Assembly (NCBI GenBank): GCA_049975265.1
Contig: JBNGDF010000005.1
Coordinates: 18,654 to 82,653 of the forward strand
Length of the DNA: 64,000 nucleotides
Direction of reading: 5' to 3'
Origin: Fidelibacterota bacterium
GTDB lineage: Bacteria; Fidelibacterota; UBA2242
The position numbers were made by a program, and so were the translations under genes. Every line of letters begins with the position of its first letter. Positions within the stretch are counted from its first letter, which is position 1. A model generated the notes under the pieces. That model was not told the origin of the DNA. It saw nothing but the letters and a program-made list of their open reading frames with translations, and searched no databases. Below, in pieces: positions 19,491-47,454 of this stretch.

Positions 19491-19551
19491 GAATAAATAT
19501 ACATTAATATTAATTCATTGATAATTTCAACTATCTGTCGCCAAAAGTCAA
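19491..19551 (-). promoter_or_regulatory. Promoter and 26-bp operator of the dehydrogenase triad
   Basis: Minus strand TTGACT (19551-19546), then 30 nt after TTGAC: GAATTAATATTAATGTATATTTATTC (19516-19491). Confidence 0.75.
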
Positions 19552-19665
19552 TAAAAAATTTTAAGACTATCGGTTATCCGTTAATTATATCCCCAAAATT
19601 CAGCGATTCTATAAAGATCGGCATTTACTTTTTAAAGGCGGATTAATTGATAGGTAGAACAGATA

Positions 19666-20616
19666 TTAAGTTAGATGAAGCAGCTCGTCAGCCCCCTGAT
19701 CATCAATAACCAGAGAGTTGATGATTCCTGCTCTCGCCGCAGCGGCAACGACTTGAGCCCGATCCCGTCCGCCGGTTACGGCAACCACTTCCGGAATCCT
19801 TTTTAACTGTTCCAAGCTGATGCCGATAATCCGGTTTGTATAAGTGGTTTCACATTCATTGCCATCTTGGTCCAGAAAATGACCACAGATTTCACCCACC
19901 ATGCCCCGGGATTTAAGGTTATTTAATTTGTGTTTTTCAGAAAATTCATTTGTGTAGAAGACCGAATTTACCGGATTACCAATTCCTACGAAAGCCAGGT
20001 TGGCATGATCCATCTGGTTTAGGACATATTTAATCTGCTCGTGTTCTACAAAAATTTGGTAGCTGCGGTGGTCGGGAGTGATTGCGGGGGCTTGCAGACG
20101 ATAATATTGTCCGCCCCAGCGTTTCGCCAGGCGCCGGGTAAGTTCGATAGCATCATTTTCCTGAATCTGGGTAGAAATATCACCGATGGCTTGAATAAAG
20201 ATATTGCTGTAAGTCGCTTGGGTCGGTTTCATCTCCTCCGTCACAGCATTCAGATAACGTCCCGCGGCGACACAGACAACTGAACCGGATTTGATTAGTT
20301 TGCTGAGAACAGGAGCCGCAAAATGCCCCATCGTGTAGCGATACTGTTCGCTGGTCTGACCGGGGATTGTTTTGATGACGACGCAGTGATGAAAATGGAA
20401 TTCTTCCATCAATTTCTTTTCAAGCACCTGATCACGGGGCGAAAAAGGCTTAACCTGGATTTGGACTATTCCCTTTTTACGGGCTTCCTGGAGCAGACGG
20501 GACACATTAGCCTGGGATAGTCCGGCTAGTTTAGCTACTTTAGCCTGCCCCAGACCTTCGATGTAGTAAAGCGAGGCAACAAGCAGTAAAATTTCATCTT
20601 TTGCTTTTGGTTTAAT
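19666..20616 (-). CDS. SorC/DeoR-family (LsrR/CggR/EryD-like) sugar-phosphate-binding repressor, copy A; probable ATT start
   Basis: The frame extends upstream of the track ORF to include the HTH (VASLYYIEGLGQAKVAKLAGLSQANVSRLLQEARKKGIVQI). Sugar-binding domain has AFVGIG, VGEICGHF, LVIDD. GGGAG lies 6 nt before ATT at 20616. Confidence 0.85.
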   Translation of the reverse strand: MKPKAKDEILLLVASLYYIEGLGQAKVAKLAGLSQANVSRLLQEARKKGIVQIQVKPFSPRDQVLEKKLMEEFHFHHCVVIKTIPGQTSEQYRYTMGHFAAPVLSKLIKSGSVVCVAAGRYLNAVTEEMKPTQATYSNIFIQAIGDISTQIQENDAIELTRRLAKRWGGQYYRLQAPAITPDHRSYQIFVEHEQIKYVLNQMDHANLAFVGIGNPVNSVFYTNEFSEKHKLNNLKSRGMVGEICGHFLDQDGNECETTYTNRIIGISLEQLKRIPEVVAVTGGRDRAQVVAAAARAGIINSLVIDDQGADELLHLT

Positions 20617-20701
20617 GTCTGGCTCCCTGCGAAGTTTTAAAAATCATCCTGACCGTAAATTGATTGAACATTTCAAATTCTCCCAGATAATAAAGAAAAA
20701 A

Positions 20702-20767
20702 CATCAATTATTCAATCATATTTATTCATTAAAAAAAATTTATATAAAATGAACTCTGTTCTGACAA
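20702..20767 (-). promoter_or_regulatory. Promoter and operator-like site of SorC copy A (possible autoregulation)
   Basis: Minus strand TTGTCA-N17-TATAAA, then GAATAAATATGATTGAATAATTGATG (20727-20702), which resembles the 26-bp operator. Confidence 0.55.
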
Positions 20768-20852
20768 TGAGTGTTTTTACCAATATTGCTATACTTAATG
20801 ATTTTCCCCTTATAAAATTGAAGTTGTCTGGTTGTTTTTAACAAAAAAAGTG

Positions 20853-20913
20853 TTGACATTCCCTGAAAAATGCTTAAAATTAACTTGGCATTTTTATTAA
20901 TGGATATTTATTC
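20853..20913 (+). promoter_or_regulatory. Promoter and 26-bp operator of uptake module A
   Basis: TTGACA (20853)-N16-TAAAAT; GCATTTTTATTAATGGATATTTATTC at 20888-20913, 30 nt after TTGAC. Confidence 0.72.
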
Positions 20914-21033
20914 AATTTAATTATAAAGCATGGTTTTTTTTTAAACATAGGTCGAAACAGGCGGTTAAGAAACAGAAAAATGCTCAGCCGCGCCCAGACT
21001 GGGATTAGGGCAAGCCTGTGTGGAGTGATAGTT

Positions 21034-23751
21034 ATGAATAAATTTGGTGTGGTTGTAATAGTTGGACTGGTCTTATTGATTTGTATTAGTGCTTTGGCTG
21101 CACGACCGGAAAAATCATGGGGAAGATTGTTGATAAAAACACCGGTGATCCGATTGTCGGCGCTAATATCTATATTGAAGGTACCAGTATGGGGACGGCA
21201 TCGGATATCAATGGCGATTACTTTATTATCAACATTCCACCCGGAACCTACACACTGATCTGTTCTTATGTTGGATATGAACGCATCTCCGTAGTAAATA
21301 TTGAGGTCAACGTTGACCGGACTACAATTCAAAATTTTTCTATCGCTCCCCAAGCAATTGAGGGTGAGGAAGTAACGGTTATTGGGACCCGCAAGATTAT
21401 TGAAATGGACCGCACAAATACAGCGGCTTATGTAACATCAGAAGAAATTCAGACCATGCCGGTGCAGGAGCTGGGCGACCTTATTCAGCTGCAAACGGGT
21501 GTGGTGAAGGATGCCGGTGGTACTTTTCATATTCGTGGTGGTCGCGGTGGTGAAATCGCCTATCTGATTGACGGAGTTCCGGTGACGGATCAATATAACG
21601 GCGGAAGTTCCATTGCGATGGAAAACAGCTGGGTTCAGGAGCTGCAGGTCATCAGCGGTACGTTTAACGCCGAGTTACGGTCAGGCTCAATCGGGTGTCG
21701 TCAATATGATTACCAAGGAGGGTGCGAAAAAATTTGGCGGAAATGCCTCGCTCTCAATTGGCGATTATCTTTCAAGCCATTCAGATATTTTTATGAATAT
21801 CGGGGAGATAAATATAAATGAGAAGGACCTCAATCTGAACTTCAGAGGACCGATCTCCCTTATTCGGAATTTGTCTTTTTACACATCCCTGCGCTATTAT
21901 CAGACCGATGGCTGGTTATACGGACAGCGTCGGGTGCTTATCGATGATACCGTGCCGATCCAGCATTATGTCTATCAGGCTCAACGAAATCCCACTCAGG
22001 AGGAGTCACTTTATGGGTATAACATTCCGGACTCGCTGATGAATGGAGACGGCGCCTATATTCCCATGAATGGCAGAGAAAAAATTTCCGGTTACGGGAA
22101 GCTTTCGTACATGCTTACGCCGAAAATTAAGATCAACTATTCGCTATTTTACAATAAGACGGAATCCAGGTCCTACAGTGATTCCCGGCGCTACTCTCCT
22201 GACGGTGTACGTCCGTCTCATGACCGCAATTATAATCACATTCTCAGTCTGAATCACATCCTCTCAAATAAGACCTTTTATAATCTCAACCTATCCCATT
22301 ATGCCAAAAACACCTGGTCTTACCTTTTTGAAAATCCTCTGGATCCGCGTTACCAAGGCATTGCCTTTAGTGACCAGGGATTCATCTTTGGCGGCACTCA
22401 GAACGACCGGTATGATATTTTACGCTCGGCGACATCAGTTAAATTTGATCTGACCAGTCAGATCAACAAGTTCAATCAGGTTAAAATGGGGCTCGAGTAT
22501 AAGCAACACAAACTTGATTACAACTCTTCCAAAACGGTAGCATACGGTGTCAACTACCAGCCGCCCGATTCTCTGGCGGTGCCTGCGAGAAATACGGCAA
22601 ATAATAATCATTATCTGGTAAAGCCCTTAGAAGCATCAATATATATTCAGGACAAAATTGAATTCAGAGAGGTGATCATCAATGTCGGTTTACGTTACGA
22701 TTACTGGGACCCGGTAGCTCAGATCCCCGTGGATTTACGCGCCAGAACAAATATCTATGATGGTATTCGACTGGATTCGGAACTCAGGAAAGCCAAAAAA
22801 CAGATGCAACTGAGTCCCCGATTGTGTTTAGCATATCCTATTTCCGACCGGGGAGTATTTCACGTTTCCTACGGTCACTTTTTCCAGCTGCCGCGTTTCA
22901 ATGCAATTTACAATAATTACGAATATGAGATTGAACTGGGCGGGCTGCGTACAACAATGGGCAACGTGAATTTGAAACCGGAACAGACAGTAGCTTACGA
23001 GTTGGGACTTCAACAGCAACTTGCGGCGGACTACAGTATTGACATTACCGTTTATTATAAGGACATCCGTAATTTACTGAGTCAGGAAATCATCAGTACC
23101 TATGATGACAAGGTCTATGCCCGCTATATTAATCGTGATTACGGCAATGTAAAGGGTATCATCTTTTCGGTGAACAAAGCCTATTCGAATTATTTTTCCG
23201 GTGGGATTGATTACACCTATCAGGTGGCGATGGGGAATGCGTCTGATCCGAATGCTGTCTTTACAAGATATCAGACCGATCCACCGGCGGAGGACGAAAA
23301 GCAGGTGGTCCCTCTGGACTGGGATCAGCGGCATACCTTGAATGCGTCGGCGATTGTTGGGAATCCGTCCAACTGGACCTTTGCGGTAATCGGGCGGTTT
23401 GCCACAGGAATGCCTTACACGCCGACCAACCCCGGTAGTCAGTTGACGACCCAGTTTGAAAACAGTGCCCGCAGACCGGCGACGTATAACATTGACCTGA
23501 ATATCTATAAATCGGTGAAATTGCAGCGCTATAAGCTGAATCTCTTTTGCAAGATATTCAATTTGACCGACCGTTTAAATGAGATCAGAATCTATTCCAG
23601 TACCGGCAATGCCCGTCATCCCTACAGGACCATTCCCAATATGGAGGTGCTGCAAAACAATCCGAATTTCACGGTGGATGAGGTGGATTTGAATCCTACC
23701 TACTATTCCAGTCCCCGACGGGTTTTATTCGGTATAAGTGTCGATTTCTAA
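21034..23751 (+). pseudogene. TonB-dependent receptor, copy A, with two frameshifts
   Basis: The signal peptide from ATG 21034 is out of frame with (G)TTGKIMGKIVD (1-nt loss at ~21100). There is an extra T at ~21675 (paralog reads NAEYGQAQ). Plug FHIRGGRGGEIAYLIDG, barrel and terminal F are present; colinear with 47590-50301. Confidence 0.82.
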
Positions 23752-23766
23752 AAGAGGAAAATATTC

Positions 23767-26700
23767 ATGTGCAAATCAATAATAATACGATGCCTTGTTC
23801 CTGTTACCCTTCTGTTTCTGACCAAGCAGGGGTTGTTCGCCGGAGCTGATGAGCGTACCACCGGGGTTCATGATGGTAACCTTGTAATTACCCGCTATTC
23901 GAATTATGGCAACCTGGGGCACCGCGATTCCAGTCCGCGGATGGAATGGCCGAAGGGGACCGGTTTTGTCTACGGGTTTGAATTTATTATGATGGCGGGT
24001 GCTGAAGTGCTGGACGTTAACGGCGATACAGTCCATATCGTATCGGAATCCTATTCACATCCAACCAGCGGGGATATTTCGGCAGACGGAACGCACTGGT
24101 ACAGCTGGCAACCGTTGCCGGGTTATTACAATATGGGACCCGAAAACAAGCTGTTATATCCGGCGATGAGTCATAAACCAGAGACCTGGCCGGCAAGCTG
24201 GCCTCACGACTACCCCGGCGAACCCGGAACCCGTGACGGTTTGTGGAACGGTGAGTTTGGTGCTTATACGCGCGCTGATCAGGAAAGTTACTATGTCATG
24301 GACGATCGTGACAATGACGAGTACGAATATTATCCCTTTATCGGAAGTTCTGTTGATTCATCGGGCTATCCCTACGGGAGGCGTGGTCTTGGATTTGAGG
24401 TGAAAATGCGCGGCTATCAGTGGGCGGCAGTAGAGGCGGAAGACATTCTGATTGTGTGTTACGATATTGCCAATGTCAGTCATAAAAACCTCGAGACAGT
24501 TGTATTCGGTATGTACGTGGATGCCATGGTGGGTGGTACCAATGACAATCCCGATCATGCAACATTTGACGATTTGGATGATATTACCTATTGCTGGGAT
24601 CATGATGGTGTGGACAATCGGGGTCGCCCGGGGCTCGGTTTTTTCGGATTTGCTTTTTTGGAAAGTCCCGGTGATCCGCTAAATGGAGTAGATGATGATC
24701 AGGATGGGTTAATCGATGAACGTCAGGATAATCCTCGCGGCAACTATATTTTTGGTTCAATCGGCAATTTTGGAGAGCCCTGTTGGCACTGGGAAGGCGA
24801 TGAAGATGGGGATTGGCGCCCTTATTTGGATGAGAACGGAAATGGACAGTGGGACCACGGTGAATTCATCGGTGATGATGTCGGTTCGGATGGGATCGGA
24901 CCATATGACCAGGACTATCCGGGACCAGATCCTGATGGAACCGAAGCCAACGGAATGCCCGATGACGGCGAACCGAATTATAATAAGACCGACAACGATG
25001 AATCGGATCAGATCGGCTTGACCAGTTCAGTATTGTGTGAAGCCCAGAGTATGGCACCCGACGAGCGCACCTGGAACCATATGAAGCCTGGCCTGTTTGC
25101 CTGGGTTCAACCTTCTAATCTCGCGTTTGTTTACGGCTCGGGCTATTTTAAGGTTATGCAAGCAGAAACCCGCAAATTTGCCATTGCCTGTCTGTTTGGA
25201 ATTGATGAAGATGATATATACCGTAATAAAAGAACTATGCAGCGGATTTACGATGCCGATTATAGCTTTACTAAACCGCCGCTGAAGCCGCGTTTGACGG
25301 CTATAGCCGGTGATGGTAAAGTGATTCTCAGTTGGGATAAACGCGCTGAATTGTCCATTGATCCAATCTATAAAGAGGATTTTGAAGGATACTTAGTCTA
25401 TCGCTCTACAGATCCCTCATTTAATGATATTAAGACGGTCACCGATGCCTACGGTGCGCCGATTTACTGGAAACCGATTGCCCAGTACGATCTGGTTGAC
25501 GGTCTGAAGGGTCCGCATCCAATCGCAATTGAAGGGACCGGTGCGCAATTTTACATGGGTAAGGACACCGGTCTGAAATACTACTACGTCGATGAAGATG
25601 TCCAAAACGGGCGTACCTACTACTATGCAGTCTGTTCGTATGACAAGGGATATGACACGGACTTTTATGAAAAGGGGTTCTCCCGCTATGATCTCCTGGC
25701 TCCGGTAGCGCCTTCGGAGTGTTCAAAAATTATTCAGACCGACCTCGTGGGCAATGTCACCAGTGTTGACCGTAACTGTGCCGTCGTCGTGCCCAATGCC
25801 CCCAGCGCCGGGTATGTGCCCGGTCAGGTGGAGGAAATTGAGCATATCGGCATTGCTACCGGCGAGTATGCCGTCAATGTTATCGTGCCCGATAGCGTTA
25901 AAGATGGTCATACTTATGAAATCACTTTTCTGGATGATTCGACGGACTGGCGCAATACAAAGAGTGTTAAAGTTGAAAATGTAACGGCGGGAAAGATTTT
26001 ATACCAGAATGATTATAATGAATTCGAGATCAGTAACGAACTTTTTGAGGGGCTCCAGTTCGAATTTGACAACGATTCAACCTATATCAAAGAGTATGGC
26101 TGGCGGGTGGGTAATTGCAATCTGCCCGTAGAAGTGGACACGGCGTGGGGTGTCAAAATTATCCGGGTTCCGGAAGATCTGGAAATAAGGGTACTTGGTC
26201 CCAATGCCGACACCACCTACAATCCCCTTGCATGGGAGCGGTATCCGGTCAATTTTCAGGTGTGGAGTACGACCCGCAATGAACAGATGGATTTCATGTT
26301 CAGTGAACCGATTAATAAAGACAGTATGCTGAACGCCGGTGATAAGGTCTATCCGGTGATTAATGCCAAAGGATTTAATTACAACGATATATGGGAAATT
26401 TACTTTCGCCACGACACCACCCAAAAGGATGTGATTTTACCGCAGCCGGGTGACATTTTTGAAATTAAGGTCTATAAACCCTTTAACTCCGATGATACGC
26501 TCCGTTTTACAACAGCAGGTTCCTTCGTCAGCAAAACAGAAGCGAAGAGCAGTCTGGACGATGTATATGTCGTTCCCGATCCCTATGTGGTGACAGCCAG
26601 CTGGGAAAAACCACTGTTTTATGCCAGCGGTCGGGGTGAACGCCGGGTCGATTTTGTCAATCTGCCGCAGAAGTGTACGATTCGGATTTTTACCATGAGT

Positions 26701-26871
26701 GGAAAGCGGGTGCGGACCCTGCACCACTCCGCTGATTTAACGGATGATGGAACGGAATCCTGGGATTTACTGACCGAAGACGGTCTGACGGTAGCCTTTG
26801 GAGTGTATATTTTTCATGTGGAGGCACCGGGGATTGGCTCCAAAATTGGAAAATTTGCCATTATCAAATAA
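23767..26871 (+). CDS. Large secreted TBDR-associated protein, copy A (Ca-binding DxDxDG motifs, FN3-like region, sorting-type C-terminal domain)
   Basis: Signal peptide; DDDQDGLIDE, DENGNGQWD, DPDGTEANGMPD; GDGKVILSWD...FEGYLVYRS...NGRTYYYAV; C-terminus YVVPDPY...CTIRIFTMSGKRVRTL...WDLL...GVYIFHV...GKFAIIK. Confidence 0.8.
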   Translation: MCKSIIIRCLVPVTLLFLTKQGLFAGADERTTGVHDGNLVITRYSNYGNLGHRDSSPRMEWPKGTGFVYGFEFIMMAGAEVLDVNGDTVHIVSESYSHPTSGDISADGTHWYSWQPLPGYYNMGPENKLLYPAMSHKPETWPASWPHDYPGEPGTRDGLWNGEFGAYTRADQESYYVMDDRDNDEYEYYPFIGSSVDSSGYPYGRRGLGFEVKMRGYQWAAVEAEDILIVCYDIANVSHKNLETVVFGMYVDAMVGGTNDNPDHATFDDLDDITYCWDHDGVDNRGRPGLGFFGFAFLESPGDPLNGVDDDQDGLIDERQDNPRGNYIFGSIGNFGEPCWHWEGDEDGDWRPYLDENGNGQWDHGEFIGDDVGSDGIGPYDQDYPGPDPDGTEANGMPDDGEPNYNKTDNDESDQIGLTSSVLCEAQSMAPDERTWNHMKPGLFAWVQPSNLAFVYGSGYFKVMQAETRKFAIACLFGIDEDDIYRNKRTMQRIYDADYSFTKPPLKPRLTAIAGDGKVILSWDKRAELSIDPIYKEDFEGYLVYRSTDPSFNDIKTVTDAYGAPIYWKPIAQYDLVDGLKGPHPIAIEGTGAQFYMGKDTGLKYYYVDEDVQNGRTYYYAVCSYDKGYDTDFYEKGFSRYDLLAPVAPSECSKIIQTDLVGNVTSVDRNCAVVVPNAPSAGYVPGQVEEIEHIGIATGEYAVNVIVPDSVKDGHTYEITFLDDSTDWRNTKSVKVENVTAGKILYQNDYNEFEISNELFEGLQFEFDNDSTYIKEYGWRVGNCNLPVEVDTAWGVKIIRVPEDLEIRVLGPNADTTYNPLAWERYPVNFQVWSTTRNEQMDFMFSEPINKDSMLNAGDKVYPVINAKGFNYNDIWEIYFRHDTTQKDVILPQPGDIFEIKVYKPFNSDDTLRFTTAGSFVSKTEAKSSLDDVYVVPDPYVVTASWEKPLFYASGRGERRVDFVNLPQKCTIRIFTMSGKRVRTLHHSADLTDDGTESWDLLTEDGLTVAFGVYIFHVEAPGIGSKIGKFAIIK

Positions 26872-26899
26872 GCGATGTTCTCTTTAGTTGGAGTAAGAT

Positions 26900-27967: not shown

Positions 27968-28026
27968 TGAAGGAAAAGATTTTAAATAAAACAAATGAAT
28001 ACAACAGGAATTAACAGAAGGAGAGA

Positions 28027-30624: not shown

Positions 30625-30643
30625 TGTTAAGTGAAAGTGTCAA

Positions 30644-30678
30644 TGGGCGGCTCTCCGGTCGCCCAATGCAGCTTTTTT
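30644..30678 (+). terminator. Stem-loop after the LamG/LTD gene of module A
   Basis: TGGGCGGC-TCTCCG-GTCGCCCA, with a T run shortly downstream. Confidence 0.45.
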
Positions 30679-30828
30679 GATAGCTTGGGAAAATTTTTTG
30701 TCCCCCTGAACAGTCCATTGATTTGACGGAAGTATGTTGTGATTTTTCTACTGAACATTGAAGAAAGGAGTTCTTCGAAAAATTGATGGGGTAAGCACTC
30801 TGTAAATCCGTTGAAAAAGGAGCCAATA

Positions 30829-31605: not shown

Positions 31606-31624
31606 GAGTGACAGGAGAACAGTC

Positions 31625-33622: not shown

Positions 33623-33640
33623 AAAGCAGATTACCATCCG

Positions 33641-35605: not shown

Positions 35606-35611
35606 GGTACG

Positions 35612-37329: not shown

Positions 37330-37412
37330 ATATCAATGCTTTGCAAAAGGGGGCAATAAGATTTATTTGGCTTGAATGAGCCGGTAAAGGGCGTAGAAAG
37401 GCAATTTTTTTA

Positions 37413-37473
37413 TTGACTCTGATGGAAATATTTTTTAAGGTATAGTGGAATTTATATTATTGAATAAATATTC
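37413..37473 (+). promoter_or_regulatory. Promoter and 26-bp operator of the multi-LTD gene
   Basis: TTGACT (37413)-N17-TAAGGT; GAATTTATATTATTGAATAAATATTC at 37448-37473, 30 nt after TTGAC. Confidence 0.75.
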
Positions 37474-37609: not shown

Positions 37610-40600
37610 ATGAAAAAGCGTGGTTTTGTATTTATCGCTGCTCTGATGTTCGTAAGTATCAGTACCTTTGCTACGGTGGTTACAACATCGGATAGTGTCG
37701 TAATAAACGAGTTTACCTATAACTCGGAATACTACGACAATGAATGGATCGAGCTGTACAACATTTCCAAGGACACGGTCAATATTGTGGGCTGGTCATT
37801 GATGGACGGTTATGCAGGTCACAATCCTGCTGTTATTCCAAACACCTGTCCTGACACCCTCTTGGAGCCCGGTGAATATTTTACGATCTGAACGATTGGA
37901 GATGGATTAAGCCATGGTTGGCCGCTACATTTTACTCCTAATGTGGATGCAGTCGGAAGCACCAATATCGTTTTAAATAATACCGGAGACATTCTGTACC
38001 TGCGGGACGCGACCGGAACGGTAGTCGACAGCGTCGATTTCTGGGATGAAGAAACATTCCCGGATGCACCCCGATGGGGTGTTGGTCCAACATGCGAGCT
38101 GATTGATCCTCTTGCTGATAACAATGATCCGAATAACTGGGCCGCTAGTTTTATGTATGGCGGGACTCCCGGGTCCCAGAATCAGGTGGCTTTTGAAGTA
38201 CCGAAAATCATCATCAGTGAAGTAATGTACAATCAGACAGAGGGATATGAGTTTATCGAATTGATGAATGCCGGTGACGTGGATGTCGATATCAGCGGCT
38301 GGTGGATCACTGACGATAATCCAACCACTGCTAAGACCCCCATACCTGCGAGCACGACTCTGGCAGCCGGGGATTTTTATGTCATTTTGGTTGATTCGTC
38401 CGAGGCTCCTCCCTTTGCACCGGATCACAATATTGCCGCCGTTGCGCCAATTGGTCTGAATAATGATAAAGAGAATATCGTCCTTTTCAATGCCAATGAC
38501 ACGATGGTGACCTTTATGCATTATGATGACGGCAGTTCCAGCTATGGTGAATTTGCCCATGCTCCCAAAACCAGTGGTCATACACTTGAAATAATTGATA
38601 TCAATTGTACCAATTGGGAGCCTTTAAACTGGCAGTTGAGTCTCTATGTAGGCGGTTCGCCAGGAGCTCTGAATGCCACGCCGGCGTCACTGGTTTTGGC
38701 TGAAATTGTCGGTACTAACAAAGTTGATCTGACCTATTCGGAACCGGTGGATTCAACCCAGGCTGTGACGAAAACCAATTACAAGGTCGATCATGGAGTT
38801 GGTAATCCGGATACTGTCATATGGTTAAGCGAAGTCATGGTAGAACTGACCGTGTCGGAAATCAAGTGGGATACCACGTACGCTCTGGCGGTCTGGAATG
38901 TCACCGATCTTGAGAGTGGAACTCCGATTCCGGATAGTACCGTCATCACCTACGGTCGTTACAAACCTGATGCCGAACCACCGGTTGTTGTGGCGGTTAA
39001 CGCGATGACAGATTCAACGGTCGTGGTCGAGTTTAACGAAGAGGTGGATTCCACTTCGGCGGTAACGCTGACCAACTACAGCATCGATAACTCCATTGGC
39101 AATCCGCTGGGTGTCACCTGGTTTGGTGATAAGGTGGAGCTGGCATTAGCCATGAAACTGACCCTGGATGCCACGTATACCATTACGGTCAACGGGATTA
39201 CCGATTTGTACGAAAATACAATGACCACCGCCGCCGTTTTGGAGTTCGTCCTCCGGGATTACAGTGGCAAGATTATCATCAACGAGTTCACCTACAATTC
39301 GGAATATTACGATAATGAGTTCATTGAGTTATATAATAATTCTGATGAAACCATTAATATCGCCGGTTGGGGTTTTCAGAACTCACTGGATAAGGATGTT
39401 TTAATTGTAGCCGATACAATCGACACCGAAATCGAACCGGGGACCTATTGGACAGTTTGGCTGTATGCGGATCCGTTATCCAGGGGTCTCGATTGGCCAC
39501 TGCACTTTACGCCGGATTGGAATGCGGCGATTGATTTGACCGATTCTACTAAAATCCACGTCTTCAATCTCTGGAATTCCGGCAGCGATATATCGCTCTA
39601 TGACGAAGCCGGCAGAACCGTTGATTTTGTTGATTTTAAGGAAGAAGAGACCTTCAATCAGCAGGCAAAATGGGGTGTTGGTGTGACCCTTGAGCGGATT
39701 GATCCCGACGGTCCCTCCAACGATCCGGAAAATTGGATGGCGAGCTGGTACTACGGTGGGTCACCCGGTGCAGCCAACCGCATTGATCGCCCGGTCTATC
39801 CGAAAATCGTCATCAACGAAATCATGTACCACAGCGCCGATGGTAATACCGAGTTTGTCGAACTGAAAAACCTGGATGATGTTGCCGTGGATATCAGCGG
39901 CTGGTGGTTGCGGCGTGATAATCCGACCCTTCCGAAAGTACCGTTTACCGGTGAAACAACTCTGCAACCGGGCGACTTCTATGTTGTTCTAATTGATTCT
40001 CTCGGCGGACAGGATCTGGGATTTGTTCCGGATATGAATTATACCAATATTTCCAAGATCAACTATTCCAACAGCAAGGATAACGTAATTCTGTTTAATG
40101 ACGATGATATGATGGTGACCTATGTACATTATGATGACGGTGCTCATAGTTATAGTGAATTCACCCATGCAATGGATGCTGACGGACTGGGTAAGTCGCT
40201 GGAATATTGGGATTACCGGAAAGAGAACTGGGAACCATTAGCCTGGGCAGCCAGTCAGGATTCCGGTGGAACACCCGGCAGAGAAAACTTCATTCCCGAT
40301 GTCGTTCCGCCGGTCGTGGATTCAGCCCTGGCGATCAGTGATACTACCGTGCGAGTCTACTTCAACGAAGAGCTGAACTATACGACAGCCGTAAACAAGA
40401 ACAACTACACTATCGACAATGGTATTGGTAATCCGCTCTACAATCTTCTGGAGTCTGGCAATATGTCGGTTATTCTCTACCTGAATCCGACTAATCCGCT
40501 GGTTGAAGGGACAAACTACACGGTTACCGTTACCGGCGTCACCGACGTTTCCGGAAATGCCATCGAAGACATGAATACGGCGACCTTTGTCGGTCCGGCG

Positions 40601-40912
40601 GTGGTTGGAATAAACGGTGAGGATGCTCTTCCTAAGGTCTTCGCCCTGCATAAGAACTACCCGAACCCATTTAACCCGGTCACGACGATCAATTACGATC
40701 TTCCCAAAGATGCCAATGTTCGCATCGTGATCTATGATGTAATGGGACGGGAGGTTCGCACGCTGGTGAACCGGCATCAGAAAGCGGGCTACAGGACACT
40801 GCAGTGGAATGCACTGGATAACCGCGGACTTCCGGTCAGTTCAGGCTTCTATTTCTATGTGATGGATGCCGGCAACTTCCATAAGACCGAGAAGATGCTG
40901 TTGCTGAAGTAG
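37610..40912 (+). pseudogene. Secreted protein with four lamin-tail domains, Ig-like domains and CTD; one in-frame TGA at 37889
   Basis: ORFs 37610-37891 and 37943-40912 are in the same frame. The internal repeat shows Trp at the TGA position (EPGEYFTI*T vs EPGTYWTVWL). Four INEF/ISEV/INEI...IEL.N...GW...GG.PG units; KNYPNPFNP...KMLLLK. Confidence 0.75.
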
Positions 40913-40932: not shown

Positions 40933-40966
40933 AAAAAGGCTGCCTTTCATCGGGCAGCCTTTTTTT
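40933..40966 (+). terminator. Intrinsic terminator
   Basis: AAAAAGGCTGCC-N8-GGCAGCCTTTTTTT. Confidence 0.85.
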
Positions 40967-40988
40967 CTCATAATGAAAGCGGCTGTTG

Positions 40989-41074
40989 GAAATAATATTG
41001 GTGAATATTTTCATTGACTTTTAGCCAGATTTTCCGCAAACTTTATTGGAATTATTATTTGTGTATATTTATTC
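40989..41074 (+). promoter_or_regulatory. Promoter and operator(s) of the GDPD-G1PDH-HAD-GlpT-isomerase operon
   Basis: TTGACT (41014)-N17-CAAACT; GAATTATTATTTGTGTATATTTATTC at 41049-41074; a weaker copy at 40989-41014. Confidence 0.72.
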
Positions 41075-41140: not shown

Positions 41141-42025
41141 ATGAAGAAACTGTTTACAGGAGGTCTGATTGCTTTAATGACCATGGGATGTTCTCAGAGC
41201 GATCGTAAACCGATTGATTTTTATGATCGTCTGAATATCCTGCCCATCCAGGCACACCGCGGCGGTGGTCTGGCATTGCCCGAAAATACGCTGGAGACCT
41301 TTGAATTTACCTGGGCAAATCAGATGATTCCCGAAGCCGATATCCGGACAACCAGTGACGATGTCATTGTCTGTATACATGATGATACCGTTGGACGGGT
41401 GGCTCCGGATGCTTCCGCCAATTTAAAAAAGAAAAAATTCGAAGAGCTTGATTTACAAACGATCAGGTCACTAGATGTGGGTCGCTATCGGGGCAAACCC
41501 GGTCAGCGGATTCCCACCTTGGAAGAAGTATTCGCCGTGATGCAGGGACATCCTGAAAAATTGCTCTACCTGGATTATAAACAGATCGATCTGGACCGAC
41601 TGGCGACGCTGGTGAAAAAGTATAATTTGGAAAAACAGATTATTTTTACGACGAAGCACTATGACCTGATTCTGGAGTGGAAAAAGCGGATTCCGGAATC
41701 ACCGACCATGATCTGGATAGGGGGTTCACTGGCGCATAAAAAGGAGACTTATGCCAGCCTGAAGGAGGCTGATTTTGAAGGTTTAACAACACTCCAGATC
41801 CATGTCAAACTGCAGGATAACGGGCAATTTACCCCCGATGCGGATTATCTCGGTGCCTGCTTGAAAGAGTTGACGAAACATGGTGTCTTGTTTCAGGTAC
41901 TGCCCTGGCGAATTAACGATCCGGAAGTCTTTAGAAAACTGATGGATATCGGTATCCGTTCCTTTGCCACCGATTTTCCTGATTTAACGCTTGCAGTATA
42001 TACCGACTATTTAAAAAGTCCGTGA
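41141..42025 (+). CDS. Glycerophosphodiester phosphodiesterase-family lipoprotein (divergent second copy)
   Basis: Lipobox TMGC; QAHRGGGLALPENT, PEADIRTTSD, CIHD, RIPTLEEV, FATDFP. Confidence 0.85.
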   Translation: MKKLFTGGLIALMTMGCSQSDRKPIDFYDRLNILPIQAHRGGGLALPENTLETFEFTWANQMIPEADIRTTSDDVIVCIHDDTVGRVAPDASANLKKKKFEELDLQTIRSLDVGRYRGKPGQRIPTLEEVFAVMQGHPEKLLYLDYKQIDLDRLATLVKKYNLEKQIIFTTKHYDLILEWKKRIPESPTMIWIGGSLAHKKETYASLKEADFEGLTTLQIHVKLQDNGQFTPDADYLGACLKELTKHGVLFQVLPWRINDPEVFRKLMDIGIRSFATDFPDLTLAVYTDYLKSP

Positions 42026-42041
42026 AAGGAAGCGACCGGGC

Positions 42042-43415
42042 ATGAAATCCTACGAAATTGAGACTTCGCAGCGGATAAAGGATGCGCTGCAAATCCTTGA
42101 CGCGAGTAAAATTGTCGAAATCGGTAGCGGCATTTTAGACAGGATAGCGGAAATCTTTCGGCGCTGTTTTGATGATCGACCAGCGATCATTATTGCGGAT
42201 ATGAATACCTATCCGGCTGCCGGACGGCAGGTTGAAACACTGCTAAAAAATTCGGGTATATCGCTGCTGGAAACGTTTATTTTCAGGGAAGCTGATTTGT
42301 ATGCAGAGATGCAGCATGTTGACCATTTGGTGGAGCTGCTCTCGAAAGTAGATGCCATTGCCATTGCGGTGGGGTCCGGTACCATCAACGATCTGGTCAA
42401 GTTAAGTTCCTATCGTTGTGGTCGTCAGTATCTGGTGGTGGTGACTGCCGGATCGGTGGATGGGTACAGCGCTTATGGAGCATCAATCTCAGAAAATGGT
42501 TTAAAACAGACCTTTTTTTGTCCGGCACCTCAGGCGGTGATTGTGGATTTGGATGTTATAGCCGCCGCCCCACGGATAATGAATGCCTGGGGATATGCCG
42601 ATTTGGCAGCAAAAATCCCGGCGGGCGCCGATTGGATTATCGCGGATGCACTGGGGATTGAACCGATTGACAGAATTGCCTGGAATTTCGTGCAACGACC
42701 GCTACGGAAATTAATCACCGATCCTGCCGGTGTCAGAAATGGCGATCAGCGGGCACTCTGTTTCCTGATCGAGGGATTAATCATGAGTGGTCTGGCGATG
42801 CAACAGGCGAAATCCTCGCGACCGGCTTCGGGTGCCGAGCATCAGTTCAGTCACCTTTGGGACAACCAGCATCATATTCACCATGGCAAGGCGCCTTCCC
42901 ACGGTTTCAAGGTAGCGGTGGGGTCTATGGCATCCATTGCGCTCTATGAGGCAATGTTTGCAATTCTGGGTGATGCTCCATCAGCGAAACTACGGGATGT
43001 CACCGGCTACTGGTTGGATTTTGCTGATATTGAGAGAGAAATAAAACGGGAATTTCCCAGTCCGCAGGAGTCGGTTCAGATCATTGAGCAGAGCCGTGAA
43101 AAGTATGTCGATCACAGAGAGTTAGCCAAACGGGTTGCTCAGGCAGTCTCCATCTGGCCGGATTTGAAGAAGAAATTGCTGAAACAACTGCTCGATTTTA
43201 AAGAATTTCAAGCCCTGCTCAGAAGGGTGGGGGCACCCCTCTCACCTCTTGACATCGGTATTGAGCCGGATCGGCTGAGGGCTAGTTATCGAACCGCCTG
43301 GCTGATACGGCAGCGGTATACGATATTGGACTTTACTTACCAGTTGGGTATATTCGAGCAGTGCATCGGGTATATTTTCGATTCCGAACGGTATTGGAAA
43401 TCCTCGTCTGAATAA
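42042..43415 (+). CDS. egsA: sn-glycerol-1-phosphate dehydrogenase, bacterial AraM/EgsA type
   Basis: AVGSGTINDLVK, TAGSVDGY, GYADLAAK, SSRPASGAEHQFSH, HGFKV, IRQRYTILD motifs. Confidence 0.85.
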   Translation: MKSYEIETSQRIKDALQILDASKIVEIGSGILDRIAEIFRRCFDDRPAIIIADMNTYPAAGRQVETLLKNSGISLLETFIFREADLYAEMQHVDHLVELLSKVDAIAIAVGSGTINDLVKLSSYRCGRQYLVVVTAGSVDGYSAYGASISENGLKQTFFCPAPQAVIVDLDVIAAAPRIMNAWGYADLAAKIPAGADWIIADALGIEPIDRIAWNFVQRPLRKLITDPAGVRNGDQRALCFLIEGLIMSGLAMQQAKSSRPASGAEHQFSHLWDNQHHIHHGKAPSHGFKVAVGSMASIALYEAMFAILGDAPSAKLRDVTGYWLDFADIEREIKREFPSPQESVQIIEQSREKYVDHRELAKRVAQAVSIWPDLKKKLLKQLLDFKEFQALLRRVGAPLSPLDIGIEPDRLRASYRTAWLIRQRYTILDFTYQLGIFEQCIGYIFDSERYWKSSSE

Positions 43416-43435
43416 AACATTAGCGGAAAAGGAAC

Positions 43436-44287
43436 ATGGATAACAAGACAACACATTTAAAGCGGCTCGTGAATATTCGCCACCTGGTACTGGATATGGA
43501 CGGAACCATTTACAACGGCAGACGGCTGTTTAATTTTACCACTGATTTTTTTAAAAAGCTGGACAACCTGGGAATTCGGTACACCTATCTGACGAACAAT
43601 TCATCGAGAAATGTGTCGCAGTATCTGGAAAAAATCCGCAGCATGAACCTGAAAGGAACCAAAGAGAATATCTACACATCTTCGCTGGCGACGATTGATT
43701 ATCTTCAATCCAGGCGACCGGAGCTGCAGAAATTGTATATTCTGGGAACGGAGGGATTGAAAAGGGAATTTCGGGAATATGGATTTACGGTCGTGGAGAC
43801 AGACGGCGCTATGGAACCGGACGGCGTAGTGGTCGGTTTTGATACCTCTCTTGATTTTAAGCGCTTATGTAAAGCCGGATACTGGATCAAAAGCGGAAAG
43901 CCTTTTATAGCGACGCATCCTGATCGCATCTGCCCTACGGATCAACCGACGCTGCTGATTGACTGCGGGGCTATCTGTGCCGCTCTGAGTTCGGCGACCA
44001 GCAGGGCGCCGGATGTGGTGCCGGGTAAGCCCGACCCAGGTATGATTTGGGGAATCATGGAGCGCAATAAATTACACAAGGAAGAGGTAGCCATGGTGGG
44101 CGATCGCCTCTATACGGATATTGAGATGGCACGCCGAGCCGGGGTGATGGGGATTTTGGTATTGTCCGGTGAAGCAACGGCGGAGGATGTAAATAACGCC
44201 GTCCATCAACCGGACCTGATTGTGGAAAATATCCGGGAACTTGGGGAACTACTGGAACAGAGTCATCAGGTGAACAACCGAGAGTGA
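43436..44287 (+). CDS. HAD-IIA sugar/glycerol-phosphate phosphatase (AraL/NagD-like)
   Basis: DMDGTIY, TNNSS, GKP, GDRLYTDI motifs. Confidence 0.9.
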   Translation: MDNKTTHLKRLVNIRHLVLDMDGTIYNGRRLFNFTTDFFKKLDNLGIRYTYLTNNSSRNVSQYLEKIRSMNLKGTKENIYTSSLATIDYLQSRRPELQKLYILGTEGLKREFREYGFTVVETDGAMEPDGVVVGFDTSLDFKRLCKAGYWIKSGKPFIATHPDRICPTDQPTLLIDCGAICAALSSATSRAPDVVPGKPDPGMIWGIMERNKLHKEEVAMVGDRLYTDIEMARRAGVMGILVLSGEATAEDVNNAVHQPDLIVENIRELGELLEQSHQVNNRE

Positions 44288-44320
44288 TACTGTAGTGATT
44301 TAGATTACAGGAGACATCAG

Positions 44321-45709
44321 ATGATCTTTAGCAGGCTGTTCAATTTTTTAAAGGTGGCACCGGATGTACCGCCGATTACCGATGAGCACGTGATGCGGAA
44401 ACAGTACAAATACTGGCGTTTCCGGGTCATGTATGTCATGATGTTCGGCTATATGGGCTACTACTTTGTGCGTAAGAGTCTGGCGGTGGCGATGCCGGTT
44501 ATCGAGCAGGAGTTTAATATTCCCAAGGCACAGCTGGGTCTGATTCTGACGGCGTTTGGGATTACCTATGGGGTCTCAAAATTTATCAACGGTTTTGCGG
44601 GTGACCGCACGAATCCGCGCTACTTCATGGCGTTGGGCTTGATCTGTTCGGCGCTGATCAATGTGTTTTTCGGACTGAGCAGCGGTATTATTACATTCGG
44701 TGTGTTCTGGATTTTAAACGGCTGGTTTCAGGGAATGGGCTGGGCACCCTGCAGCAAAACGCTGGTCAATTGGTATGCCGCCCTGGAGCGCGGCGTCCGG
44801 TTTTCCATCACCAACACCGCCTGTTCCATCGGAGCTTCGGGAGTCGTCTTTTTAAACGGTTTTCTGATTGTCCGCTACGGCTGGCGCTCCTGCTTTTTTG
44901 TGCCGGCGGGGATTGCCTTGCTGGCGGCGCTTTTTATTTTGAATCGTCTGCGCGACCGTCCGCAATCGCTGGGTCTGCCGCCGGTGGAGGAATATGTAGG
45001 CGAGGAAGCCGATATCAGCGATTCAAAAGATGGGCAAAACGTCTCATATAAAAAGGTTGTGGTTCAGTACATTTTCAAAAATCCGGGAATGTGGATCGTC
45101 AGTATTGCCAACTTTTTTGTCTATGTGATCCGCTATGCGATTCTGGATTGGGGTACCACCTTTCTGACGGAGTCAAAGGGCGTGGATATTACCCAGGCGG
45201 CGGGGATTGTCGGTGGCTATGAACTGGCGGGATTAGCCGGTATGCTGGTCGGCGGCTGGGCTATGGACAAGCTGTTTAGAGGCTACGGCGGACGGACCTG
45301 TGGAATTTATATGGCGTTATGTACCCTTTTTATTTATCTGTTCTGGAAATTGCCGGTACAATCGGTGATTCTCAATGGAGCACTTATCTGGGGTACAGGA
45401 TTTATGATTTATGGTCCGCAGTGTCTGGTAGCGGTTATCGCTGTCAACATGGTGCCGAAAAGCGCCGGTGCGGCAGCGGTGGGACTGACCGGTCTGTTTG
45501 GCTATTTAAGTACGATTCTTTCCGGTTGGGGGCTTGGTTTGGTAGTTGACAATTTCGGATGGGATACCGGCTTTATGGTATTGGTCCTGTCATCTCTGGC
45601 GGCGATGTTCTGTTTTATTTTGTTGTGGAACCGGAATCCACATCTGCCGGGTTCCAAAGCGCATACAGAGCATGAAAATAATAAATTGAGAAACCGGAGT
45701 GCCAGATAG
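44321..45709 (+). CDS. glpT: MFS organophosphate:phosphate antiporter (GlpT/UhpC family)
   Basis: YKYWRFR, YYFVRK, YGVSKF, NGWFQGMGWAP, RDRPQSLGLPP, NFFVYVIRY..LDW, IYGPQ, GLTGLFGY. Confidence 0.85.
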   Translation: MIFSRLFNFLKVAPDVPPITDEHVMRKQYKYWRFRVMYVMMFGYMGYYFVRKSLAVAMPVIEQEFNIPKAQLGLILTAFGITYGVSKFINGFAGDRTNPRYFMALGLICSALINVFFGLSSGIITFGVFWILNGWFQGMGWAPCSKTLVNWYAALERGVRFSITNTACSIGASGVVFLNGFLIVRYGWRSCFFVPAGIALLAALFILNRLRDRPQSLGLPPVEEYVGEEADISDSKDGQNVSYKKVVVQYIFKNPGMWIVSIANFFVYVIRYAILDWGTTFLTESKGVDITQAAGIVGGYELAGLAGMLVGGWAMDKLFRGYGGRTCGIYMALCTLFIYLFWKLPVQSVILNGALIWGTGFMIYGPQCLVAVIAVNMVPKSAGAAAVGLTGLFGYLSTILSGWGLGLVVDNFGWDTGFMVLVLSSLAAMFCFILLWNRNPHLPGSKAHTEHENNKLRNRSAR

Positions 45710-46182
45710 TGGGAAAGCGGTTAAAAATTGCGATTGACTGTGACGATGCGGCAACGGACCTGAAAAAAGTTATTTATGAGCATTTGAAGACATCTGGTGT
45801 TGATATTACCGATTTGAATTATGGAGCGGGGCGTGACGCCATGTATCCGGAGATCGGCTATCATCTGGCTCTGAAAATCCAGACCGGCGAATATGATCGG
45901 GGAATTTTAATTTGTGGTACCGGTTTGGGAATGGCGATTATCGCCAATAAGGTCGAAGGTGTGTATGCCGGTGTTTGTCACGATGTTTATTCGGCTGAAC
46001 GTCTGAGAAAGAGCAACAAGGCCCAAATATTGACCATGGGAGCGCGGGTCATCGGCAGCGAGTTGGCAAAAATGATTGTGGATGCATGGTTGCACTCCGA
46101 ATTTAGCGGCGGTCACTCACAACCCAAAGTAGACCAGATCAAAGCTCTGGAAAGACGCTCTTTTCTTTCGAAAGCGTTATAA
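45709..46182 (+). CDS. RpiB/LacA-family sugar-phosphate isomerase, EryI/DerI-like
   Basis: GILICGTGLGMAIIANKV; HDVYSAERLRKSNKAQILTMGARVIG. It has SNxAQ rather than the RpiB HNxAN and lacks the N-terminal DH. Confidence 0.8.
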   Translation: MGKRLKIAIDCDDAATDLKKVIYEHLKTSGVDITDLNYGAGRDAMYPEIGYHLALKIQTGEYDRGILICGTGLGMAIIANKVEGVYAGVCHDVYSAERLRKSNKAQILTMGARVIGSELAKMIVDAWLHSEFSGGHSQPKVDQIKALERRSFLSKAL

Positions 46183-46264
46183 TTTATAACAATTATTTCT
46201 TTTGTTTATACCCTGAGCCCGTTTTATGGATTTGCTGTCAGGGTAATTCTACATGTAGAACATT

Positions 46265-47212
46265 TCAAGATATCTTTAATAATTCTCTTGCACCGATATC
46301 ATCGATGACTAAAGAGTTGATCAGATTACCGTGAATGGCGGCGGCAAGAGCCTCCGCCCGATTTGCGCCGCTGGTAACGGCGATGACCTGAGGGATCCTT
46401 TTTAACTGTTCCATGCTGATTCCGATGACCCGATTGCGATATTCGGTATCACACTCTTCGCCATCCCGGTTAAAAAAGTGACCACAGATTTCGCCCACAA
46501 CCCCCTTATTGATCAGGTAGTTTATATCGTTGGTTTTCAGAAAGTCGCGGTCGTAAAACACCGAATTGCCGTGAACGCCAATACCGACAAAGGCAAGATC
46601 GGCGCTGTCCATACGGGATAATACGAATTTGATCTGATCGTGTGAGACAAAGGCTTCGTAGGTCTGACTATTGGTGGTGATGGCCGGGGCTTGCAGGCGT
46701 AGAAATTGCCCGCTCCAGCGCTTGGCGAGTTTCCGAGTGATTTCAATGGCATCGTCTTCTTTGATATGGGTGCTGATATCGCCCATCGCTTGAATGAAAG
46801 TTACGCCGGAACTGTTGGCCGGGTGCATGTTTTCGCTTAGGCTGTAAATATGACGTCCGGCAGCGACACAGACAATGTTATTCGGTTTAATCAGTTTGGA
46901 TATAAGCGGTCCGGCGAAATGCCCCAACGCATGCCGGCGGTTTTCCTCGCTGGTGCTGGCAGCGCTTTTGATGACAATTGCGAAATCCAGGTGATATTTG
47001 ATTTTGAGATTTTGTTCGAGTTCTTTATCCTGAGCGGAAAAGGGTTTTACGGTGATCTGAACGATCCCACGCCGGCGCGCTTCCTCCAGGAGTCGGGAAA
47101 CGGTGGCTTGGGACACCCCGGCTAGTTCCGAAACCTTTGCCTGCCCCAATTTCTCTACATAGTAGAGAGTCGAAACTAAGAGTAAAAGGTCATCTGAGAC
47201 ATTAATTTTAAT
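46265..47212 (-). CDS. SorC/DeoR-family repressor, copy B; probable ATT start
   Basis: LYYVEKLGQAKVSELAGVSQATVSRLLEEARRRGIVQI HTH; colinear with copy A. ATT at 47212 aligns with the ATT of copy A; the track's extension to 47344 is AT-rich promoter DNA. Confidence 0.85.
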   Translation of the reverse strand: MKINVSDDLLLLVSTLYYVEKLGQAKVSELAGVSQATVSRLLEEARRRGIVQITVKPFSAQDKELEQNLKIKYHLDFAIVIKSAASTSEENRRHALGHFAGPLISKLIKPNNIVCVAAGRHIYSLSENMHPANSSGVTFIQAMGDISTHIKEDDAIEITRKLAKRWSGQFLRLQAPAITTNSQTYEAFVSHDQIKFVLSRMDSADLAFVGIGVHGNSVFYDRDFLKTNDINYLINKGVVGEICGHFFNRDGEECDTEYRNRVIGISMEQLKRIPQVIAVTSGANRAEALAAAIHGNLINSLVIDDIGARELLKIS

Positions 47213-47392
47213 AGTGCACCCGATTTCAAATTGATTATAACACCAATAATCAGTTATTACTGCCTTTAAAATAATATAGTTGGAATATTTATACAAATAA
47301 AAAGAGGAAATTAGCAAAAGTGAAAAATCAGGCAGATTTTTCAATCAAGGGTAGAATAATAGGTAGCTTTCAATGAATTGGTAAAAAAACTG

Positions 47393-47454
47393 TTGACTTT
47401 TAGGATAAAAGATTGCATACTACACATAGAATTAATATTTATGAATAATTATTC
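47393..47454 (+). promoter_or_regulatory. Promoter and 26-bp operator of uptake module B
   Basis: TTGACT (47393)-N17-CATACT; GAATTAATATTTATGAATAATTATTC at 47429-47454. Confidence 0.78.

Follow-up and report, generated by a model that had tools for sequence, protein, structure and literature searches.

A 26-bp motif at five promoters and two sorC genes

We analysed a 64,000-nt stretch of a Fidelibacterota bacterium genome (contig JBNGDF010000005.1, positions 18,654 to 82,653; hereafter the window, with positions counted from its first letter), which carries two genes for SorC/DeoR-family regulators and five copies of a 26-bp motif standing at the heads of five predicted transcription units. 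Both regulator genes lie on the minus strand, sorC1 at 19666..20616 and sorC2 at 46265..47212, and they are divergent from two operons headed by genes for TonB-dependent receptors (TBDR1 and TBDR2). On the plus strand the motif was found at 20888..20913 (promoter of the TBDR1 operon, in a variant with GCATT), at 37448..37473 (promoter of a gene for a secreted lamin-tail-domain protein), at 41049..41074 (promoter of an operon for the glycerophosphodiester phosphodiesterase GDPD2, a glycerol-1-phosphate dehydrogenase (G1PDH)-family enzyme, a HAD phosphatase, a GlpT-type transporter and RpiB) and at 47429..47454 (promoter of the TBDR2 operon), and on the minus strand at 19491..19516, before a trio of genes for a GlpA-like glycerol-3-phosphate (G3P) dehydrogenase. 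The letters and coordinates given by a first-pass annotation for these five 26-mers, and for three weaker sites, all agreed with the sequence.

At each site the motif follows a TTGAC -35 box. Between the end of TTGAC and the motif lie 30 nt at four sites and 31 nt at the fifth, as had been noted, and counted from the start of TTGAC the motifs begin at 35-36 nt. The -35 boxes are TTGACT at 19551-19546 for the glpA-like trio, TTGACA at 20853-20858 for TBDR1, TTGACT at 37413-37418 for the lamin-tail gene, TTGACT at 41014-41019 for the GDPD2 operon and TTGACT again for TBDR2, where the promoter TTGACT-17-CATACT spans 47393-47421. Weak -10-like hexamers (GAAATT, AAAATT, TAAGGT, CAAACT and CATACT, the first at the glpA-like promoter) lie 17 bases past each -35 box, and this spacing puts the first G of the motif at about +1, so that the motif is predicted to cover the start and the first 26 transcribed bases (about +1 to +26 of the transcripts), which is a repressor position. 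A scan for consensus promoters was uninformative (23 matches, while shuffled sequences gave 18.9 +/- 4.2), and of the three promoters in the region it listed only the one at 47393. Downstream of the lamin-tail gene and ahead of the GDPD2 promoter, the sequence shows a terminator-like hairpin (40933-40966) that is absent from the scanner list.

Weaker copies had been reported upstream of both sorC genes, and these proved to be conserved. A two-unit site upstream of sorC1 (20702..20727, minus strand) is kept in all five genomes carrying the SorC pair (see below), with the surrounding DNA diverged, and a single 12-bp unit upstream of sorC2 (47283..47294, without strand assignment) is kept in 7/7 aligned sequences. 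Because both are conserved, autoregulation of the two genes is suggested. The third reported copy, at 40989..41014 (plus strand), is doubtful: its score of 11.3 bits is within the background, only the part touching TTGAC is conserved, and it is more likely the A/T-rich context of the -35 box. Another weak match (12.7 bits) lies at 37314-37339 on the minus strand, 134 nt before the 37448 site; it also occurs in the close relative G002 and is within the background.

Specificity of the motif and its distribution among relatives

The motif is real. With a matrix built from the five sites, these were the top matches in the 2.86-Mb genome (26.8-30.3 bits), and the next-best match scored 18.2 bits (C6:33376). 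Leave-one-out scores were 21.7-27.3, which no position beyond the five sites attained. The 18.2-bit match was considered as a sixth site, with TTGAC 33 nt upstream, and was rejected as it falls within a 427-aa coding frame. A second matrix was made from 11 sites of three relatives only, with 80% A+T as background, the 11 sites having been chosen with a pattern that had also seen the sites of the window. Among 2931 TTGAC[AT] positions the five sites scored 23.8-28.1, followed by 15.7 (the coding match) and then 6.3, and among 59,478 A+T-rich 26-mers they again ranked on top, with the next at 14.2. The null stated by the first-pass annotation, that the motif scores no better than A+T-rich background at this fixed spacing, was thus not upheld, and the genome-wide scan it had proposed revealed no comparable site elsewhere. 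Since all strong sites lie within one 28-kb stretch, the regulon is local.

Two sets of relatives were searched, one of 61 genomes and one of 401 Marinisomatota genomes of the phylum. Within the smaller set, a close SorC pair was found in five genomes and only distant SorC proteins (~30% identity) in 15 others. A strict motif pattern matched the same five genomes only, at 20 sites in total, and was absent from the 15 genomes with distant SorC proteins; the reversed control gave 0 matches. Although the strict pattern did not require TTGAC, the box is found 33-36 nt upstream in 20/20 sites (at 35 nt in 15 of them), and all 20 overlap the predicted promoter or 5' leader of sugar-phosphate catabolic genes. 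Orthologous sites are kept in 5/5 SorC-pair genomes at the glpA-like, TBDR1 and GDPD2 promoters and in 7/7 aligned sequences at the TBDR2 promoter, and the lamin-tail site is also present in G002. Across the phylum set the SorC clade occurs in eight genomes, and a promoter-plus-motif pattern was found in the same eight and in none of the other 393.

Additionally, sites that had not been used in training were recovered. In genomes of another family (f7), which have one SorC protein of 54-55% identity, such sites scored 20.5-29.6 bits at TBDR, glpD-like and GDPD2 promoters, and one further site (G003:C45, 28.7 bits) had been missed by the strict pattern. Upstream of sorC homologues with other neighbours, a Phycisphaerae record gave 32.2 bits and a Victivallis record 25.6 bits, while the best matrix score at 16 distant SorC loci was 12.3.

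These distributions bear on two other explanations of the motif. Recognition by another factor (Fur, PhoB or the product of a TetR gene at 12168-12842), or a role as core-promoter element of an alternative sigma factor, would suit an A+T-rich motif that is found at promoters of TonB-receptor and phosphatase genes and whose distance from the -35 box is fixed. However, the genome has no site outside the cluster, the motif is absent from 393/401 phylum genomes, it accompanies sorC into other phyla with different neighbours, and base 4 of its half-site tracks the SorC helix (see below), so we regard this explanation as improbable. The motif might also act as RNA, in a 5' hairpin or protein-binding leader, being the predicted first 26 nt of the transcript and roughly self-complementary. 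Yet positions 5 and 22 oppose T to T in 20/20 sites, positions 6/21 and 7/20 pair in only 9/20, and the predicted energies are 0 to -2.6 kcal/mol with varying structures. Rfam gave no match in the window, and an RNA element is the least probable of the explanations considered.

SorC proteins, geometry of the probable operator and the recognition helix

By profile and fold, the two regulators are members of the SorC family, SorC/DeoR subfamily. SorC1 (316 aa, helix SQANVSR) and SorC2 (315 aa, helix SQATVSR), both counted from a predicted ATT start, are 57% identical, and each has a C-terminal NagB-like sugar-phosphate-binding domain (PF04198, 199 and 211 bits against a cut-off of 27). Full-length alignment to SorC and DeoR revealed a short N-terminal helix-turn-helix with an SxxxVSR helix, not the winged helix of CggR, and the proteins match the isolated DeoR DNA-binding domain 7bhy by profile. 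The top Foldseek matches of a SorC structure model (pLDDT 94) are SorC, LsrR and DeoR. Klebsiella SorC (2w48) is the best structural and profile match, at 28% identity, and LsrR (4go1, 4l5i) matches in fold, both belonging to different pathways; Bacillus subtilis DeoR (PDB 8r7y) shares the fold and the helix-turn-helix type (E 5e-35 by profile, 2e-25 by Foldseek).

The motif had been described as two abutting pseudo-palindromes, and this reading stands, with two 12-bp units GAATA-WW-TATTC at a period of 14 bp. The right unit is near perfect in the 20 sites, and the left unit is imperfect in all of them, with T at position 5 in 20/20 and C at position 12 never. With its flanks the right unit reads TGAATA-WW-TATTC(A/T) and fits the inverted repeat of a half-operator, TGAA-N6-TTCA. 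DeoR has the same half-operator geometry, a conserved helix arginine (R39) and one good and one imperfect half (PMC11229326).

Homologues of 35-55% identity were sampled for the relation between helix and operator. Of 84 loci, 83 were translated and 66 remained once dereplicated at 85%; the upstream DNA sufficed in 62 of these, one of them with a misread helix, and was searched to 330 nt. With Arg at helix position 2, a tandem G[AC]ACA-NN-TGT[GT]C at period 14 was found in 13/16 homologues and the T type in 1/16; periods 20, 21 and 22 gave 2, 0 and 2 tandems. With Gln at this position, as in the two proteins here, the C type was found in 0/45 and the T type at period 14 in 10/45, and shuffles for these helix-code counts averaged 0 and 0.07. 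Among the same 45 homologues, the scores were 8 each for periods 12 and 13, 0 for 15, 5 for 21 and 4 for 17, with shuffle controls for the period counts covering period 14 only. In 31 hand-picked Gln-helix loci, where periods 12-14 were compared, the best period was 13 in 17/19 with an SQAK helix and 12 in 10/11 with an SQTK helix, at scores of 12-18 out of 20, of which the low ones are possibly chance. Upstream of six Arg-helix homologues (L072, L074, L126, L140, L155 and L163), GCACA/GAACA tandem operators with the same 14-bp period were seen.

The variable helix residue can be placed on a solved complex. Allowing for a chain offset of five residues, DeoR R34 aligns with the Gln of SorC1 and SorC2, and R34 contacts T12 of the 18-bp half-operator (PMC11229326), which is the symmetry mate of base 4. 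In this way, the covarying residue and base correspond to a contact in a solved structure, and base 4 of the half-site appears to follow one helix residue, T going with Gln and C with Arg.

Spacing of the halves by two helical turns (20-22 bp), as in CggR and DeoR, was not observed, the period being 14, and no conserved element above the promoter elements was found one tetramer spacing away (+/-21 bp) in the 20 sites. This comparison covers DeoR and CggR, the only two SorC-DNA complexes described in PMC11229326. The dra-nupC-pdp operator of DeoR extends over 39 bp at -60 to -21, with halves ~22 bp apart (our own count on the printed sequence, the right half being the authors' proposal), as against 26 bp at predicted +1 to +26 and a 14-bp period here (PMC11229326). 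Furthermore, DeoR serves one target operon, while five promoters and two paralogs are found here; Gln replaces R34, T replaces C at base 4, and the Lys of the QLKGG segment of DeoR is Met or Ile. The CggR/gapA operator of B. subtilis (PDB 8r3g) resembles the present case in the SorC family, in a tandem operator downstream of the start and in unequal halves, and differs in its winged-helix subfamily, in the 45-bp length of the operator and the 20-bp distance between its repeats, in half-sites that are rich in G+C and in its glycolytic genes (PMC11229326).

The half-operators abut, at a 14-bp period here and at 12-13 bp in sister clades. In B-DNA, 14 bp correspond to ~48 A and ~120 degrees. As the second dimer would be rotated by this angle, the complex is likely to differ from the same-face tetramers of DeoR and CggR, in which both dimers lie on the same side of the DNA (PMC11229326). 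Given this geometry, two neighbouring dimers would probably wrap round the helix, contributed by one flexed tetramer or by two tetramers.

Because of the co-occurrence of motif and SorC proteins, the untrained sites at homologues in another family and in two other phyla, and the helix/base covariation on a solved contact, the 26-bp motif is very probably the operator of the two SorC proteins; the proposal that these are their binding sites is thus strongly supported by sequence comparison. Several points weigh against this reading. The strict and promoter-plus-motif patterns were composed after the positive genomes had been seen, so the independent evidence consists only of the 393 negatives and the newly found sites, and the eight positive genomes are kin within two families. 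The -10 boxes are weak, with the first T mostly missing, and the transcription start is for this reason inferred from sequence. No period-14 site lies within 330 nt of 35/45 Gln-helix homologues, and the same homologues also score at periods 12, 13, 21 and 17. In a quick tree the Gln/Arg label needs only two changes, so the covariation amounts, apart from the DeoR case, to about one independent event, and no clear site is seen in the single Arg row that stands apart (L183).

The first-pass annotation had also divided the right halves of the five sites into two classes and linked these to different preferences of the paralogs. The split is present in this genome, but orthologous promoters do not keep it: at the glpA-like promoter two genomes have TGTATA.. 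and three have TGAAT.., and a similar switch is seen at the sorC2-divergent promoter. The classes were therefore ruled out as paralog signatures; moreover, the two recognition helices have one fixed difference (SQANVSR and SQATVSR). It is still conceivable, if rather doubtful, that the paralogs divide the sites, each with its own operator class or one unit each and its own effector, which would amount to an AND gate or to two sub-regulons. All five genomes retain both paralogs, and of the 31 positions with a fixed difference 27 lie past residue 60, in the effector-binding domain, with one in the recognition helix (T37N). The left unit is imperfect throughout, C at position 2 is found only at the TBDR1 promoter (5/5 genomes, against A in 15/15 other sites), and sorC1 adjoins the G3P genes, as sorC2 adjoins the G1PDH and RpiB genes. 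Besides the class switching, however, single-SorC genomes bear the same asymmetric motif at G3P, glycerol-1-phosphate (G1P) and uptake promoters, so the asymmetry is older than the duplication. Sharing of the sites by both paralogs, possibly with different effectors, is the better reading, and a subtler promoter-specific preference may exist at the TBDR1 site with its C at position 2.

The sorC genes appear to start at ATT, ATC or ATA (ATH). Each of the ten sorC genes in the five genomes has an ATH codon (ATT in six, ATA in two, ATC in two) 14 codons before an [ST]LYY motif, past a purine-rich stretch; in the window these are the ATT codons at 20614-20616 (sorC1) and 47210-47212 (sorC2) on the minus strand. 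No ATG, GTG or TTG is common to one position across the ten genes, and in two of them an in-frame stop lies two codons upstream of the ATH. Ordinary starts occur in single genes only (in one gene a GTG lies four codons upstream, in the sorC2 of the window a TTG lies 44 codons upstream, and others are a few codons downstream), and the first ordinary start of sorC1 in the window is 37 codons in, inside the helix-turn-helix. Other orthologues with an ATH start are L031, L033, L035, L036, L007, L037, L038 and L039, and in outgroup homologues the start is an ATG or GTG placed 15-16 codons ahead of the motif. Automatic gene calls of the clade are 225-312 aa long, as against 315-317 aa predicted, which fits because a missed ATH start would cut off the DNA-binding domain. 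A genome-wide habit of ATH starts was considered and rejected, Shine-Dalgarno-like sequences preceding 77/1587 ATH codons (4.9%) and 2.8-4.5% of other codon classes. The screen recovered sorC1 and one IF3-like protein, which we take to be IF3, a known AUU starter. Such starts would likely keep repressor output low.

The regulon genes and a predicted phosphodiester-scavenging pathway

Downstream of the minus-strand operator, 16345..19464 (minus) encodes an FAD oxidoreductase with a BFD domain (glycerol-3-phosphate oxidase/GlpA-like, below cut-off), a pyridine-nucleotide oxidoreductase and a DUF1667 protein, a predicted G3P dehydrogenase complex, assigned by comparison with work on Thermococcus. 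On the plus strand, the first uptake operon (21034..37329) comprises a TonB receptor gene (frameshifted) and genes for a 1034-aa protein, a PorV-like barrel, a LamG and lamin-tail-domain protein, GDPD1, a SASA-type esterase and a secreted protein, followed by a purple-acid-phosphatase-like gene (frameshifted). The gene for the secreted lamin-tail/Ig-domain protein (37610..40912, plus) has a stop at 37889-37891. The next operon (41141..46182, plus) encodes GDPD2 (a predicted lipoprotein), the G1PDH-family dehydrogenase, a HAD-IIA phosphatase, a GlpT/UhpC-type transporter and a DerI-like RpiB. The second uptake operon (47590..62860, plus) comprises genes for a TonB receptor, a second 1034-aa-type protein (broken), a PorV-like barrel, a LamG and lamin-tail-domain protein, secreted proteins and a metallophosphoesterase. 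In both uptake operons the 1034-aa-type gene (23767-26871 and 50356-53494) lies between the TonB receptor and the PorV-like barrel, and its product belongs to no known family and matches only unnamed look-alikes.

The G1PDH-family protein matches Fe-ADH_2 (PF13685, 109 bits), and its closest solved relative is the AraM-type 9h4x (E 1.5e-35), with which the D, PASGxEH and HG metal-binding segments align. The RpiB of the regulon (45709-46182) has in common with 5ifz a signature without the two histidines of canonical RpiB. It is a second, DerI-like copy, scoring 160.8 on the DerI model NF051858 (cut-off 240), while a canonical-looking rpiB on another contig (L001:7531-7968) does not reach E 1e-25 on this model. 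Among 36 loci of at least 6 kb, the neighbours of the SorC subfamily include G1PDH in 16, HAD in 15, GlpT in 15, GDPD1-like in 12, GDPD2-like in 12, RpiB in 10 and GlpD in 10. From these genes the cluster is predicted to serve the scavenging of glycerol- or polyol-phosphodiesters, and the operator likely represses uptake (TonB receptors, phosphodiesterases and the GlpT-type transporter) together with the predicted G3P and G1P dehydrogenases.

Two features tell against this assignment. Relative to other genomes, four uptake genes are broken in the assembly, which may reflect gene decay or assembly error. Furthermore, the dehydrogenases score below curated cut-offs (G1PDH NF002022 171.5 against 413; G3P oxidase 346 against 460), so that their substrates are uncertain. 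The broken genes are those for TonB receptor 1, the phosphatase, the lamin-tail protein and the second 1034-aa-type protein, with break points at 21100, 21675, 36654, 37889-37891, 50422-50424, 51364-51366 and 51778, while the operators, regulators and cytoplasmic enzymes are intact.

The DerI-like extra RpiB paralog and the FGGY kinases in some loci speak against a pure three-carbon pathway. It is possible, though not the reading we favour, that the operator holds and the pathway is mainly one of tetritol or pentitol phosphate catabolism, in which the G1PDH-family enzyme would make D-erythrulose 4-phosphate for the DerI-like isomerase and this compound would be the inducer. The RpiB is His-less like 5ifz, its DerI score is unlike that of the housekeeping RpiB, G1PDH, HAD and RpiB accompany FGGY kinases in Chloroflexota loci, and the relative G001 has an added ribulokinase. 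However, RpiB is present in only 10 of the 36 larger loci as against 16 for G1PDH, the steady partners are GDPD, GlpT and GlpD/GlpA genes, and the DerI score stays below its cut-off. A biosynthetic G1PDH for archaeal-type ether lipids is unlikely. The genome does have a PcrB/GGGP-synthase-family gene, the regulon G1PDH is its only G1PDH match, and FCB-group bacteria can encode ether-lipid enzymes (PMC7852524). Against this, the G1PDH gene shares one operon, under an operator, with a phosphodiesterase, an importer and a phosphatase, and the PcrB gene (L101, G000:C11:60569-61234) lies among housekeeping genes on another contig with no operator. Scavenging of glycerol phosphodiesters remains the preferred assignment.

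Related loci vary in gene content. In G001 the second uptake operon (L032:2997-13893) also includes a sugar ABC transporter and a ribulokinase, the latter scoring over its curated cut-off, and L031 has an added URO-D-like gene and a third GDPD. In G028 (L038:6075-8931) the two parts of the GlpT-type gene flank another transporter gene, and rpiB, GDPD2 and the second TonB receptor do not occur where they are normally found. At L108 (G013) and L110 (G001), G1PDH homologues with 55-57% identity stand in other contexts, and the operator matrix gave nothing over 10 bits in the DNA analysed there.

As a mechanism, we propose that the two neighbouring SorC proteins repress the five promoters by occupying the predicted first 26 transcribed bases, each unit binding one dimer of DNA-binding domains as the DeoR half-operator TGAA-N6-TTCA does, and the Gln that aligns with DeoR R34 selecting T at base 4. 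A repressor bound at about +1 to +26 would block initiation or promoter escape. A small phosphorylated intermediate would release the repressor, with dihydroxyacetone phosphate (DHAP) or a glycerol phosphate as best guess and a tetrulose phosphate as second; DHAP is among the ligands that disrupt the CggR-DNA complex (PMC11229326). In induced cells, TonB receptors would import phosphodiesters, exported GDPDs and metallophosphoesterases would cut them, and the GlpT-type transporter would take up the monophosphates, sn-G3P and sn-G1P then being oxidised to DHAP and a four-carbon side product being handled by the DerI-like isomerase. Both paralogs would bind the same sites, autoregulate and stay scarce through their ATH start codons. 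The two glycerol-phosphate enantiomers occur in wall and lipoteichoic acid, respectively, lipoteichoic acid being a polymer of sn-G1P (PMC7086022).

The logic of the regulon is ordinary, as is a repressor with a palindromic operator. In the Escherichia coli glp regulon (GlpR; glpTQ, glpABC, glpD), GDPD, GlpT and G3P dehydrogenase are combined in the same way; GlpR belongs to the E. coli DeoR/GlpR family and not to SorC, and the glp regulon is not known to include a G1PDH, a TonB receptor or a DerI-like gene. In B. subtilis araL-araM, too, a HAD phosphatase adjoins a G1PDH, AraM being encoded in an arabinose operon. Brucella EryD controls a polyol-phosphate pathway near an rpiB gene; that pathway is a different one, and no EryD box was found there (PMC3522698). 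A literature search, made without RegPrecise and most subscription papers, found no description of the motif, the SorC subfamily or the regulon. What is new is the abutting of half-operators at 14 bp, the apparent ATH starts in ten sorC genes, and a regulon joining both types of glycerol-phosphate dehydrogenase with a DerI-like isomerase.

Taken jointly, these points allow a broader proposal, which we offer tentatively. A so far undescribed SorC subfamily of Marinisomatota, Verrucomicrobiota, Planctomycetota, Victivallis and Chloroflexota would bind half-operators 12-14 bp apart, in an architecture unlike the solved same-face tetramers and with a one-residue Gln/Arg code for base 4. In the lineage studied here it would have been duplicated into an ATH-initiated pair that shares operators and senses different metabolites, in control of a pathway that is fed through TonB and handles glycerol phosphate in both mirror forms, from the remains of bacterial and of archaeal-type or lipoteichoic-acid envelopes. 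G1P is the backbone of archaeal lipids. The 12-14-bp period predicts an assembly unlike the solved ones, for which these operators are ready substrates for structure work, and automatic gene calls in the SorC clade likely lose the DNA-binding domain if the ATH start is missed. Finally, phosphodiesterases, TonB receptors, a G3P dehydrogenase and an importer of phosphate esters are linked through the operator to a G1PDH-family enzyme, and this linkage makes the role of bacterial G1PDH homologues directly testable as sn-G1P catabolism.

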